The notes under the pieces: generated by a model
What the model was told of the DNA's origin: nothing
The model's input: the letters and a program-made list of their open reading frames with translations, nothing else
The model's database searches: none
Part shown: one piece after another, positions 1 to 58,930 of the stretch
Layout of the letters: each line of letters begins with the position of its first letter
Position numbering within the stretch: the first letter of the stretch is position 1
From: a virus
Lineage: Duplodnaviria > Caudoviricetes
Strand: one strand, 5' to 3'
DNA: 58,930 nt
Virus record (IMG/VR): IMGVR_UViG_3300049488_000015
Span: 1 to 58,930 of that record
Made by a program: the position numbers and the translations under genes

Positions 1-141
1 TCGCGGAGCTCGACTCGTCGCCACTAACGGAATGCATCGACTTTCCAGCTCATATCAGTACGGAAATGACGAACAGGAAAAGCTCGACGCTGCCAGAGCA
101 TTTTGCGCCAAGTTTATGCCCTACGCTCCCGATCTAGACCC

Positions 142-3228: not shown

Positions 3229-3528
3229 ATGTACTCACTTGCCCCTGTAAATAAAACAGCATCTATGATTGTTAATCAGTCTGGTTGCGAAGATAGGATA
3301 GAAAGTTCTATTGCAGAAGTAAATAAAGAAGGTATGATTATTCGTAACCGAATAAAAGAACTTGCGGATAAGATAGGGCTTAAAAAACCAACAACGTCAC
3401 AGCTCGGACGTTGGCGAAAAGAAAATCCAGGCAAGTTCCAAGAAGAGTCACGTCAGCTTGGGCTTTTATTCATGTTTTATAAAATATCTAAACATCATGC
3501 TCGTGAGCTTGAAAGGTTATCCAAATGA
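3229..3528 (+). CDS. hypothetical protein
   Basis: GGAGG SD before ATG 3229; ATGA overlap with next gene. Confidence 0.6.
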   Translation: MYSLAPVNKTASMIVNQSGCEDRIESSIAEVNKEGMIIRNRIKELADKIGLKKPTTSQLGRWRKENPGKFQEESRQLGLLFMFYKISKHHARELERLSK

Positions 3529-3803
3529 AATGCGTTCTTGAATTCGGTGTCCGGGGCGGCAACTTCACTGAAGTGCAAATTATTCCAACACAGCAGCTCG
3601 GAGCTAAATTGGCCGCAGCCTTGGTTCATGTGTTTAGCGACCCGGAATACGATAACCCGACCGCTCGTGCATTTGCTTGGATCGTTGCTAAGAATGCTCC
3701 TCGCAAATCCTGGCAGTCCAGCACTCATTTCGTAAGCTTGTCCCTACTTGATGGGGATCTGCGCGGCCCGGCCTCTGCTCAACTCTGGAAGAAGGATAAT
3801 TAA
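3525..3803 (+). CDS. hypothetical protein
   Basis: Coupled start/stop; 92 aa. Confidence 0.65.
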   Translation: MKCVLEFGVRGGNFTEVQIIPTQQLGAKLAAALVHVFSDPEYDNPTARAFAWIVAKNAPRKSWQSSTHFVSLSLLDGDLRGPASAQLWKKDN

Positions 3804-57198: not shown

Positions 57199-57438
57199 TT
57201 AGCAAGGAATAGACTTCAACAGAGCGCCCGTAACCATGACAACAAAAGTATTACCCTGCTGATCTTTCAGAACGATATCAACAGTGGAGTTATTACCTTT
57301 CGTGCCGTTACGAACGACGACAACTTTGTCAATTTCAATAGCCTTGATACCGTCACGGTAAATATGGCCGCGATCAATTGAGTCTTGTGCATCTTTACAA
57401 ATATGCACTTCCAACTTTTGCATTACACCAAATGTCAT
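57199..57438 (-). CDS. hypothetical protein
   Basis: GGAGG SD before MTFGV. Confidence 0.65.
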   Translation of the reverse strand: MTFGVMQKLEVHICKDAQDSIDRGHIYRDGIKAIEIDKVVVVRNGTKGNNSTVDIVLKDQQGNTFVVMVTGALLKSIPC

Positions 57439-57530
57439 AACAACCTCCCTGAGTAAAGTAGGCTGCACTCACGACTAGCTTGGATTCTGGAATCCCTAGG
57501 CGTTTGAACGAATGCAGCCTACTTTACTGA

Positions 57531-57604
57531 TGGTGCCCCGTATCGGAATCGAACCAATACCTGATGATTACAAATCAACTGCACGACCTTCATGCTAACG
57601 GGGC
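57531..57604 (-). tRNA. tRNA-Thr (anticodon UGU)
   Basis: Acceptor GCCCCGT/ACGGGGC plus ACCA; anticodon loop TT-TGT-AA; T-loop GGTTCGATTCC. Confidence 0.92.
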
Positions 57605-58715
57605 GGAACGAGCACTTAGCAGTCCTGATGCACTCGCTATTACCTTCTAATTCAACTTGTGGTTAAATAGTGCTGCGGTAAAACGGGGTCACTGACAAGC
57701 TTTCCCGAGCCCGCTTCCTCCTTTCTTGTGAAAAGTTGGAAATGTCAGTGACTTAAAGCGGGTCAATAACCTGGCCTAGACAGGTAGCACAACCGCCACG
57801 CCCTGTGGGCGAGTATTGTGGTATTGACTTAAAGACATGTGTTAGTTGAACCTTGACGCCTGTTCCTGACATGACACCTAACCGAACAACTAACTATGGA
57901 GCTGCCTGAAGATTCGAAAACTAATAACCCAGATAGGGATATAAGTAGCAACAAACAGCTCCACACTTAGCTCTTGGCGGGATAGCATTCACAGACACCT
58001 ATACAAGTTTCCTAGAGATTCATGACGATCTCACCGCCTTGCAGTCGTTCCATATAACGTCATATGCCCAGGCATACTGAACGACAATCTGCTATTCATC
58101 ACCCGCCAAGAGTGTTGGATCCTGCCATCCATAGAGGTTTAGGCCATGAACGTAGTATATGCGAAGCTCAGGGGAAGACTTCGCAGAATCATAGTCACTC
58201 CCAAAGTGACCCAAGATCCAACACTATTGGCGCCGGGAGCTGCAATACAGGATACCCGATTAGGCAACTGTCCTGCACTCGGCCGAGCTGCTATTTGCAA
58301 CTCCCGACTAGGGGCTTCAAGAACAGTTCGGACGGCCAAGGCTTTTACTACCGCGACCCGATTCACTCCAACATAACCAGAGCTACGCCAGCTTCAAGGC
58401 ACTATTCTTTTATTAACATTCCGTAGCAGCTAGGCCCTGCTCGGCCAATTTAGGTTTTATATTCCAGTTCAGGGTAACAGTATATTGATGGTCATACCCC
58501 GCTGTTACCCGGGAGTCCCTGCATTGATGACCACATTAATTATAGAGCTCCAAAGAGATAAATTAACGCAAACTTCTATGCAGGGCTGACAGTGCTGTGT
58601 TCGGTTTCGTTTTTCAAGTGAAGCCATTGTAACGAGTAACAGTTTGATGGGCAAGAATCTGTGCAGGATAGGAGTGCTTAACGATCGCAAAGACTTCACA
58701 GGGATATCGCCCACT
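57605..58715. ncRNA. candidate large structured ncRNA or ncRNA array
   Basis: Consecutive inverted-repeat-closed domains with nested hairpins; no credible ORF; adjacent to the tRNA. Confidence 0.55.
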
Positions 58716-58752
58716 ATTTTTAGGAATGTATATGCACGTATAAACTGAAGGG

Positions 58753-58930
58753 GTTAGAGTATGTTAGACATTGTTAGAGCAGCATACTTAGAGATACAGG
58801 CGCACACGTATAGCAAGAAATGTACCAGTCTAATAAATAGGAAGTATCTGGTATTAGTAGATGTAGAGTATATCAAGTGAGGAATTAGATAGAGGGATAG
58901 ACAGGGAATTCTAAAGATATGGAGAATTGG
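58753..58930. repeat. C-poor terminal tract with TAGA-type repeats
   Basis: GTTAGA at 58753, 58763 and 58773 (10-bp period); further TTAGA/GTAGA/ATAGA copies to the end. Confidence 0.5.

Follow-up and report, generated by a model that had tools for sequence, protein, structure and literature searches.

Features of the non-coding stretch

The window analysed is the whole 58,930-nt stretch of DNA in IMG/VR record IMGVR_UViG_3300049488_000015, a roughly 59-kb siphophage genome from wastewater whose large terminase is closest to those of Iggy-type and Chi-type phages. At one end of this genome, a gene-free stretch of about 1.1 kb lies at the head of about 30 kb of co-oriented late genes, on the same (minus) strand as a tRNA gene. 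The features found, in the order in which they would be transcribed, are as follows.

58626-58654 (-), sigma-70-like promoter: -35 TTGCCC (58654-58649), 17-nt spacer and -10 TACAAT (58631-58626), with the start of transcription inferred near 58619
58515-58587 (-), P1: long imperfect hairpin of the 5' core, capped by a small terminal hairpin
58466-58543 (-), near-invariant core element, containing hairpin X (58510-58472; 9 bp, 21-nt invariant loop)
58244-58447 (-), M1: composite of at least five short hairpins with a weak 4-bp long-range closure
58104-58232 (-), M2: junction module in which a 19-bp closing helix encloses three hairpins, with conserved single-stranded junction segments
57971-58112 (-), M3: module closed by an 11-bp helix, with a nested hairpin pair inside
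57885-57975 (-), M4: 20-bp helix carrying a conserved, irregular distal part
57841-57894 (-), M5: window-specific hairpin whose 5' arm overlaps the 3' arm of M4
57762-57828 (-), M6: window-specific Y-shaped hairpin
57688-57752 (-), M7: Y-shaped module with a 10-bp closing helix and a conserved interior
57605-57687 (-), M8: spacer directly 5' of tRNA-Thr
57531-57604 (-), tRNA-Thr (UGU)
57447-57533 (-), long hairpin (24-nt arms, 88% complementary, 16 bp perfect) that starts on the 3' end of the tRNA and stops at the ribosome-binding site of the first ORF
57199-57438 (-), first protein-coding ORF downstream (79 aa), marking the 3' limit of the non-coding unit

The original prediction listed 10 closing helices, some with nested hairpins, over 57452-58715, and this observation was confirmed. 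All 10 helices are present, nine as perfect Watson-Crick helices and one with 11 of 12 pairs, and a separate search found 15 inverted pairs. The nested hairpins are also present (helices 12, 13, 18 and 19 of the three-sequence alignment described below). However, the limits need adjusting, as the RNA most likely runs from about 58619 to 57447, and 58620-58715 is promoter and upstream DNA. No terminator-like site was found in the stretch other than one inside the tRNA (1 found, 2.1 expected).

The tRNA was identified by ARAGORN and by the Rfam tRNA model (55.5 bits). No other part of the stretch was called by either, and the 65-75-nt modules gave no tRNA-clan match at E<=10. Low-stringency ARAGORN with introns, used to look for tRNA remnants in the modules, was too noisy to use. 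The 79-aa ORF has relatives at 52-55% identity but no Pfam or PHROG family. A small neighbouring ORF used as bait returned 3 loci that are distant, not syntenic and lack a tRNA, and these were excluded.

Folding and coding potential

Folding no better than that of shuffled controls had been named in advance as an outcome that would count against the feature. Relative to dinucleotide shuffles (20 for each strand), 57680-58310 gave z -4.78 on the minus strand and -3.54 on the plus strand, and 57621-58620 gave z -3.46 on the minus strand (0 of 20 shuffles as good) and -1.65 on the plus strand (2 of 20). Taken as a block, 58311-58930 is not above chance (z +1.5 and +2.1), although it holds two covarying hairpins. 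For individual modules, whose boundaries were chosen on the helices and are therefore biased, z was -3.78 for P1, -2.2 for X, -7.24 for M2, -2.9 for M3, -6.31 for M4, -2.70 for M5, -3.72 for M7 and -8.32 for the terminal hairpin. M6 (-1.29) and M8 (-0.95) do not fold significantly better than shuffles.

Protein-coding content, another condition under which the prediction would have failed, was examined in the sequence. A 120-aa ORF (58064-58426, plus strand) and ORFs of 69-76 aa exist, but 4 of 4 ORFs tested had no Pfam or PHROG match, the ORFs are broken or frame-shifted in two homologous loci (L088 and L090, see below), and no long frame opens under table 4 or with TAG read as Q. Together with the z-scores and covariation, which exclude chance, this makes a protein-coding or recoded gene, or hairpins that arose by chance, very unlikely.

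Comparison with Rfam and with cultured phages

Matches to catalogued RNAs, proposed beforehand as a check, were sought with cmscan against all 4227 families of Rfam 15. Only the tRNA was found. The remaining rows are miRNA and snoRNA noise far below gathering scores. Neither GOLLD nor ROOL was matched, at gathering score or at E<=10 with lax filters, and the RNA is therefore not GOLLD or ROOL. A scan of 58430-58630 alone, made to look for small self-cleaving ribozymes in the invariant core, gave only sno-RNA noise at E 0.16-8.7. Theta-type HDV-like models (PMC10879173) were not included in that scan, and an attempt to thread an HDV-like fold onto the core by hand failed because the P2 partner is not conserved.

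A blastn search with 57400-58930 matched 1 of 50,697 cultured phage records, on the tRNA only. A model of M2 (R1) searched against the full records of 80 TerL relatives hit only the 3 seed records, and 0 of the 22 records that are at least 90% complete. The 1016-nt RNA searched against 50 of those records gave two marginal matches of 21-33 nt. A 19-nt word of M4 was found in 0 viral contigs, and the single genome contig containing it (L094) is a chance match in coding DNA of a Saccharibacteria MAG and was excluded.

Homologues and covariation

The family is narrow, found in about 12 contigs. The homologous loci are referred to here by L numbers. An exact pattern of the core occurs in 3 viral and 7 metagenome contigs, and the core element is 88-98% identical in relatives whose flanks do not align.

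Absence of covariation in homologues was a further outcome that would have told against the prediction. Instead, strong compensatory change was found. In the alignment of the window, L088 and L090 (154 pairs), 95.8% of cells are paired, against 37-45% in slid controls, and 39 pairs change on both sides, against 3-8 in slid controls. None of 500 shuffles reached the observed values. In M2, aligned across 7 sequences with 28 pairs, 92.3% of cells are paired (35-44% when slid) and 21 pairs change on both sides (5-10 when slid), and again 0 of 500 shuffles reach this. However, we note that M1, M3 and M4 rest on only three sequences, and that the structure was predicted from the same sequences on which it was counted, so the counts lean towards it. 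In M3 (helices 15-20), helices 18-20 include 8 pairs with changes on both sides, and in M4 (helices 21-24) 100% of cells are paired and 4 pairs changed on both sides. M1 comprises helices 1-10.

The MFE fold of 9 of 9 leaders gives the P1 hairpin, which holds the predicted pair 58517-524/58578-585, and its closing arms differ between lineages but stay complementary. X has one compensatory G:C to C:G change (L012) and one G:U (L090), and an overlapping alternative helix has one compensatory C:G to G:C change (L008).

Of the 10 predicted helices, 7 are supported by homologues, namely the P1, X, M2, M3, M4 and M7 closures and, by eye only, 58234-245/58295-306. Each has at least one compensatory change except the M3 closure, which has G:U changes only. 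Two others, 57762-768/57822-828 (M6, 7 of 7 complementary) and 57841-848/57887-894 (M5, 8 of 8 complementary), lie in window-specific sequence without homologues for comparison, and the latter overlaps the conserved 20-bp M4 helix. A near-identical DNA contig in sequencing run X2 covers M6. The 16-bp hairpin (57452-57528) has no counterpart after the last tRNA in the four relatives checked (L006, L008, L088 and L091).

Strand, promoter and expression

The original prediction regarded the G-U wobble evidence for the strand as mixed. With the homologues, it resolves clearly for the minus strand, the strand of tRNA-Thr and the late genes, with 74 G:U against 7 A:C cells and an alifold energy of -145.2, against -98.8 for the plus strand. 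Model R1 scores 118.9 bits on the minus strand and 30 on the plus strand, and M2 is single copy in the window.

These findings bear on the possibility that the element works at the DNA level, as terminase-binding or cos-proximal sites or as a replication origin, with the inverted repeats being protein sites or cruciforms. The record ends look like a cos junction only about 280-300 bp from the promoter, though tblastn of the early proteins of the window against the loci gave no hits, and the junction was thus not confirmed by synteny. The invariant core also hardly varies, so that covariation gives no verdict for it, and it contains short repeated words. However, about 600 nt of branched structure kept by compensatory changes, with a 74:7 excess of G:U over A:C on one strand, is expected for RNA and not for duplex DNA, and P1 and X each carry compensatory changes. 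We consider a DNA-level role very unlikely.

The promoter was found by a consensus scan that, as a whole, is not above chance (3 found, 4.4 expected). The weight comes from conservation, as TTGC[AC]C-17-[TC]A[CT]AAT is at the same place in 10 of 11 sequences examined, while the spacer varies. It is unclear in L007. No terminator lies between promoter, tRNA and ORFs, here or in L091 and L008.

A transcript, the lack of which had also been named as evidence against the prediction, was sought in sequencing runs. Words of the stretch occur in 24 runs in 15 studies, but no true RNA run contains it, and the wastewater runs labelled RNA-Seq are flagged as probably DNA, so neither a transcript nor its ends or processing sites are shown. 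Parts of the stretch without cover in these runs say nothing.

Module content and order in relatives

The RNA has two parts, a conserved two-hairpin 5' core (P1 and X) and a variable island of self-closed modules plus tRNA(s), whose content and order differ between relatives. L012 has promoter and core followed directly by ORFs, with no tRNA and no excess structure (z 0.14). Relatives carry Pro, Thr and Leu tRNAs in the island. The 5' sub-module of M1 (about 58400-58335) is shared with most relatives, with nhmmer matches in L008/L086/L087, L089, L091, L092 and L093. In L007, an M3-like half lies upstream of M2, and M2 ends 2 nt before tRNA-Leu. L089 has an M2 truncated by other sequence. L008, L091 and L006 lack M3 and M4, and M4 is present in the window, L088 and L090 only. 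M7 is shared with L006, L091 and L093, its closing arms differing but staying complementary, and it ends 3 nt before tRNA-Pro in L091 and L006. M8 is 96% identical over 76 nt to L088, where the neighbouring sequence is only about 67% identical.

One alternative is a single large ornate RNA of about 600-1000 nt that works as one folded unit, in the manner of GOLLD or ROOL, which are tRNA-island-associated phage RNAs that assemble into RNA-only cages. The helices of M1/M2/M3/M4 abut with 0-2 nt linkers, which favours coaxial stacking, and M2/M3 and M3/M4 abut with no linker, which leaves no single-stranded RNase E site. In the window, L088 and L090 the whole series M1-M4 is collinear and conserved over about 590 nt. 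However, besides the lack of any Rfam match, module content and order differ among relatives, and no loop-loop complementarity of 5 bp or more between modules is conserved in all three sequences, though the latter is only weak support for independent modules. Assembly into a homo-oligomeric cage was not assayed. We regard this alternative as possible but unlikely.

Interpretation

The original prediction was of one large structured RNA or a processed array of small RNAs, probably co-transcribed with tRNA-Thr on the minus strand. Our analysis supports that interpretation, and the variation among relatives favours the array of modules.

The reading we hold to be more likely than not is that the stretch is the non-coding 5' part of a minus-strand transcription unit. 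In this view, the conserved promoter starts an RNA of about 1.17 kb with three parts: the two-hairpin 5' core, found in every relative that has this promoter; the variable island of independently folding modules, each closed by its own helix (M1-M8), together with one to three tRNA genes, here tRNA-Thr; and, in this phage only, the long hairpin that abuts the first ORF. The helices, the selection on them, the strand, the conservation of the promoter, the lack of coding capacity and the modular make-up are demonstrated by the analysis. By contrast, it is an inference that the primary transcript is cut into the tRNA and several stable structured RNAs, with RNase P and 3' trimming releasing the tRNA and RNase III-type cuts falling in the 19-24-bp closing helices, as in rRNA operons and the T4 tRNA cluster. 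It is likewise an inference that the invariant core contacts a conserved partner, such as RNA polymerase or an RNase, which was not identified here, and so controls or stabilises the transcript that continues into the late genes.

A further alternative is that the region is purely a cis-acting leader of the late operon, in which P1+X would modify RNA polymerase as the HK022 put RNA does, or recruit a phage factor, the dense structure downstream would only shield a long untranslated, tRNA-bearing leader from Rho and RNases, and no separate RNA product would have a function. Promoter plus P1+X is the only part present in all relatives, and no terminator separates it from the late genes. However, simple shielding does not explain conserved junction sequences, or the specific covarying three-way junctions such as M2 that are kept in 7 lineages at different positions, and no terminators that would need suppressing were found. 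We consider this alternative doubtful.

A more speculative possibility, to which we give only tentative weight, is a new class of large, modular phage RNA with two new functional parts. The first would be a near-invariant, possibly pseudoknotted 5' core, in which two overlapping helices each have a compensatory change, that acts on RNA polymerase or an RNase and could be a put-like antiterminator or a new ribozyme or aptamer. The second would be a set of exchangeable RNA genes (M2, M3, M4 and M7) that travel with tRNAs in a hot spot next to the genome end and, like GOLLD and ROOL, would act on tRNA or translation biology, or assemble into higher-order RNA particles.

The natural variation of this locus already dissects it, as one relative has only the promoter and core, others carry different sets and orders of modules, and tRNAs are inserted at module borders, giving ready-made deletion and swap variants. 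It also separates a candidate regulatory core, invariant and at the head of the late operon, from cargo modules. If the core proves to be an RNA-only antiterminator or a ribozyme, or the modules prove to be independent mobile RNA genes, either would be a new principle for phage gene organisation. If it is only a processed leader, it is still a well-supported new RNA family for Rfam.

Comparison with known systems

In rRNA operons with spacer tRNAs, each RNA is enclosed by a long helix formed from its flanks, the RNase III processing stalk, of about two turns (about 20 bp). Closing helices of this length are found for M2 (19 bp), M4 (20 bp) and the terminal hairpin (24-nt arms), in a predicted transcript that also holds tRNA. 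However, the modules are 65-200 nt, not rRNAs, some closing helices (M1, M3, M5-M7) are only 4-11 bp, and cleavage is not shown.

HK022 put is a highly conserved promoter-proximal double hairpin of about 65 nt in the nascent RNA, at the head of a long operon, that makes polymerase read through intrinsic and Rho-dependent terminators (PMC8632103). P1+X is also a promoter-proximal double hairpin, predicted in 9 of 9 leaders. It is about 120 nt, larger than the size given for put, and sits at about +33 to +148 relative to the inferred start. No sequence or structure comparison with put was possible, and read-through was not assayed.

RNAC and RNAD of phage T4 are structured non-coding RNAs transcribed from a phage tRNA region, with unknown roles (PMC3014915). 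They are processed out of a common precursor with the tRNAs. The RNA described here is likewise non-coding and structured, and is co-located and co-oriented with phage tRNA genes; its excision and accumulation as stable RNA were not measured, and no T4 sequence was compared. Here there are at least 8 modules over 1 kb behind a conserved 5' core, and not two RNAs of about 120-140 nt.

Large structured RNAs beside phage tRNA genes, including GOLLD, ROOL and T4 RNAC/RNAD, have been known for years without a function. GOLLD and ROOL are large, multi-helix, covariation-supported non-coding RNAs carried by phages or prophages next to tRNA genes, and GOLLD also has a variable half and sometimes an embedded tRNA (bioRxiv 10.1101/2024.12.08.627333). 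The stretch described here, whose function is also unknown, shares this context, but as it matches neither covariance model the comparison is an analogy of context only. No pseudoknots or multimerisation are shown for it. The host-range context also differs, as these are Iggy/Chi-like cos siphophages from wastewater and freshwater, and the make-up is modular, with variable order. The locus adds an unrelated family, from Gram-negative-type cos siphophages, to the large structured RNAs found beside phage tRNA genes.

Genomic context

The IMG/VR virus record of 58,930 bases is classed as linear and 99 % complete. Genes run on the plus strand from 635 to about 27,055 and on the minus strand from 57,468 down to about 27,152, and the minus-strand block begins with small ORFs followed by the small terminase, large terminase and portal genes. 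The large terminase is 64-68 % identical to those of Acinetobacter phage HD01, Pseudomonas phage Iggy and related siphophages of about 60 kb. The structured region lies in the gene-free stretch between the first minus-strand ORF (ATG at 57438) and the right end of the record, where tRNA-Thr(UGU) is the only annotated element. The features referred to below are as follows.

58654-58649 and 58631-58626, minus strand: -35 (TTGCCC) and -10 (TACAAT) of a sigma-70-like promoter, separated by 17 nt
Near 58619, minus strand: inferred start of transcription
58587-58515, minus strand: P1, the long hairpin of the 5' core
58510-58472, minus strand: X, the second hairpin of the 5' core, with 9 bp and a 21-nt loop
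58462-58543: 76-nt conserved element
58232-58104, minus strand: M2, a junction module closed by a 19-bp helix
57607-57682: 76-nt spacer before tRNA-Thr (M8)
57531-57604, minus strand: tRNA-Thr(UGU)

The record ends look like a real genome end of the cos type. Relatives whose contigs run through the homologous place (L088, L090, L089, L092, L093, L012 and L007) carry a conserved GC-rich block directly followed by the words with which the minus strand of the window begins, and the record stops exactly at that border (window 1-30 and 58900-58930). The RNA promoter is then only about 280-300 bp from the physical end. In L088, L090, L089, L092, L093 and L007, a word of about 20 nt ending in ...ACCAT(G) recurs several times (iteron-like) 100-700 nt beyond this border, where the window has other repeats. 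At the opposite end of the record, an AT-rich stretch at 180-634 (GC 0.36 in the first kb) lies before the first plus-strand ORF. It includes two copies of a word of about 15 nt, at about 232-250 and 268-290, and several promoter-like words, and is probably the early promoter/operator region.

Folding and coding potential

The original prediction, that this stretch lacks a convincing gene and is tiled by domains each closed by a helix, is confirmed. All ten helices that it named are present where it placed them, nine of them perfect and one with 11 of 12 positions paired, and there is no terminator-like site apart from one inside the tRNA. Comparison with dinucleotide-shuffled controls on both strands had been proposed in advance as a test, and 57680-58310 was found to fold better than the shuffles on both strands, more so on the minus strand (z -4.78 against -3.54). 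The 1000 nt from 58620 to 57621 give z -3.46 on the minus strand and -1.65 on the plus strand, whereas the outer part, 58311-58930, is not above chance as a block. When the modules were examined one by one, on boundaries that were chosen from the helices and are therefore biased, M2, M4 and the terminal hairpin that follows the tRNA were extreme (z -7.2, -6.3 and -8.3, respectively), P1, M3, M5 and M7 were clear and X was moderate, while M6 and M8 were not significant.

The ORFs in the stretch (120, 76, 75 and 69 aa) have no Pfam or PHROG match and are broken or frame-shifted in the two closest homologues. No long frame opens under genetic code table 4 or with TAG read as Q.

Homologues and compensatory changes

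In cultured phages, nothing but the tRNA was matched. Among the 80 retained viral contigs that encode a related large terminase, only four (L006, L007, L008 and L012) share anything with the stretch, and what they share is mainly the 76-nt element, which is 88-98 % identical while its flanks do not align. A search with an exact pattern from that element recovered 3 viral and 7 metagenome contigs. Two of the metagenome contigs are true homologues of the folded region, namely L088, which aligns with 58930-57886 at about 67 % identity and with 57682-57607 at 96 %, and L090, which aligns in pieces. An nhmmer profile found partial homologues only in contigs that carry the 76-nt element. A 19-nt word of M4 also occurs in L094 (4306-4324), but this is a chance match inside coding DNA of a Saccharibacteria MAG and the two are not related.

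Covariation in homologous regions was a further point on which the prediction was to be judged. RNAalifold applied to the window, L088 and L090 (window 58470-57880) predicts 154 pairs in 24 helices. On that structure, 95.8 % of cells are standard pairs, against 37-45 % when the 3' partners are slid by 1-3 columns, and 39 pairs have changes on both sides, against 3-8 in the slid controls. None of 500 column shuffles reaches any observed measure. The structure was derived from the same three sequences, which inflates these figures, but the margin is nevertheless large. Module M2 could be aligned in seven lineages, and its 19-bp closing helix and two inner hairpins give 92.3 % paired cells, against 35-44 % slid. 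In M2, 21 of 28 pairs change on both sides, against 5-10 slid, and 0 of 500 shuffles reach this.

Read as minus-strand RNA, the structure from the three-sequence alignment has 74 G:U and 7 A:C cells and an alifold energy of -145.2, while the best plus-strand structure has 16 G:U and 18 A:C cells and an energy of -98.8. The M2 covariance model scores 118.9 bits on the minus strand of the window and 30 bits on the plus strand. The RNA is therefore on the strand of tRNA-Thr and the late genes. A role at the DNA level is hard to square with the 74:7 wobble asymmetry.

Promoter and 5' core

Upstream of the 76-nt element, all relatives align on the sigma-70-like promoter. The pattern TTGC[AC]C-17-[TC]A[CT]AAT is present in 10 of 11 sequences examined while the spacer varies, and L007 is unclear. 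The consensus scan alone would not be significant, and the weight is in the conservation.

From the inferred start near 58619, each of 9 leaders folds into the same two hairpins, P1 and X. The arms of P1 differ between lineages yet remain complementary, and the 21-nt loop of X is invariant. X has one compensatory change (in L012) and one G:U (in L090), and an overlapping alternative helix has one compensatory change (in L008). The core may therefore be pseudoknotted or may switch between folds, and the data do not distinguish these. No Rfam ribozyme or other family matches the core. The invariant loop of X (58481-58498) shares a run of G residues and the words ACCAUCA.UA with the 3' end of tRNA-Thr plus its trailer (57523-57541), which may be chance or a mimic of a tRNA 3' end.

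A mosaic island of modules and tRNA genes

In L012, the promoter and core are followed about 160 nt later by a run of ORFs down to the terminase genes, with no tRNA, no M2 and no excess folding (z 0.14). The other relatives have, between the core and the first ORFs, different sets of modules plus tRNA-Pro, -Thr and -Leu. M2 is present in the window, L088, L090, L091/L093, L006, L007 and L008, is cut by the contig end in L092 and is truncated in L089, whereas M3 and M4 are complete only in the window, L088 and L090. In L007, an M3-like half lies upstream of M2, and M2 ends 2 nt before tRNA-Leu. M7 ends 3 nt before tRNA-Pro in L091 and L006, and its closing helix covaries. The spacer M8 is 96 % identical in L088 (3012-3087), where the flanks are about 67 % identical and where it is not next to the tRNA, and this suggests recent exchange or strong constraint.

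L088 also has two small ORFs inserted among the modules and tRNAs, both on the minus strand, one of 68 aa with a hydrophobic N-terminal stretch (2788-2994) and one of 106 aa that is cysteine-rich (3281-3601), and the island accepts protein genes as well. A tRNA-Arg(CCU) candidate with an insert of about 32 nt in the anticodon region follows M4 at once in L088 (about 3640-3780, minus strand). It was seen by eye, and was called by ARAGORN only with introns allowed at low stringency.

The promoter and core are thus the constant head of this transcription unit, and the modules and tRNAs form a mosaic island behind it. A purely cis-acting leader would explain the core, but not junction modules kept in seven lineages at different positions.

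Distribution

The M2 model found nothing in 77 further terminase relatives, including 22 records at least 90 % complete, and a BLAST search of the whole RNA against 50 of them gave only two marginal matches of 21-33 nt. The family is thus confined to a narrow clade, with about 12 contigs and roughly 8 distinct lineages. Words of the stretch occur in 24 sequencing runs from 15 studies of wastewater, sludge and fresh water, and four of these runs, from two studies, were examined.

Predicted mode of action

The original prediction read the stretch as one large structured RNA or a processed array of small RNAs, probably co-transcribed with tRNA-Thr on the minus strand, and this is supported in those parts that could be tested. 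The analysis demonstrates a promoter, a folded RNA under selection on the strand of the tRNA, and the absence of a terminator before the late genes, both here and in two relatives. That there is one primary transcript, containing the core, the modules, the tRNA and then the late mRNA, is inferred, and expression has not yet been shown. Because a tRNA must be cut out of it, such a transcript would be processed in any case.

Long closing helices are what RNase III cuts in rRNA operons, and in this view the corresponding helices would be those of M2 (19 bp) and M4 (20 bp) and the terminal hairpin (24-nt arms), which starts on the 3' end of the tRNA and stops at the ribosome-binding site of the first ORF. 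The invariant core at the head of about 30 kb of co-oriented genes suggests contact with a conserved machine.

Relationship to known RNAs

The closest precedent for the core is the put RNA of HK022, a promoter-proximal double hairpin of about 65 nt that makes RNA polymerase ignore terminators (PMC8632103), though that function is a hypothesis here. The independence of the modules in evolution fits RNAs that fold and perhaps act on their own, like RNAC and RNAD of the T4 tRNA region, whose roles are also unknown (PMC3014915).

A single ornate RNA in the manner of GOLLD or ROOL is favoured by the zero-length linkers between M2, M3 and M4 and by the shared context of phage and tRNA island. It is disfavoured by the failed match to the family models and by the variable module order. 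We also found no conserved pairing between modules, although this is weak evidence.

A scan against Rfam had likewise been named beforehand as a check, and the RNA is not a member of any Rfam 15 family. The object is a new, narrow-range, modular structured RNA unit with a conserved 5' core and no known function. In kind it belongs with the tRNA-island RNAs of phages, while in sequence and architecture it is new.
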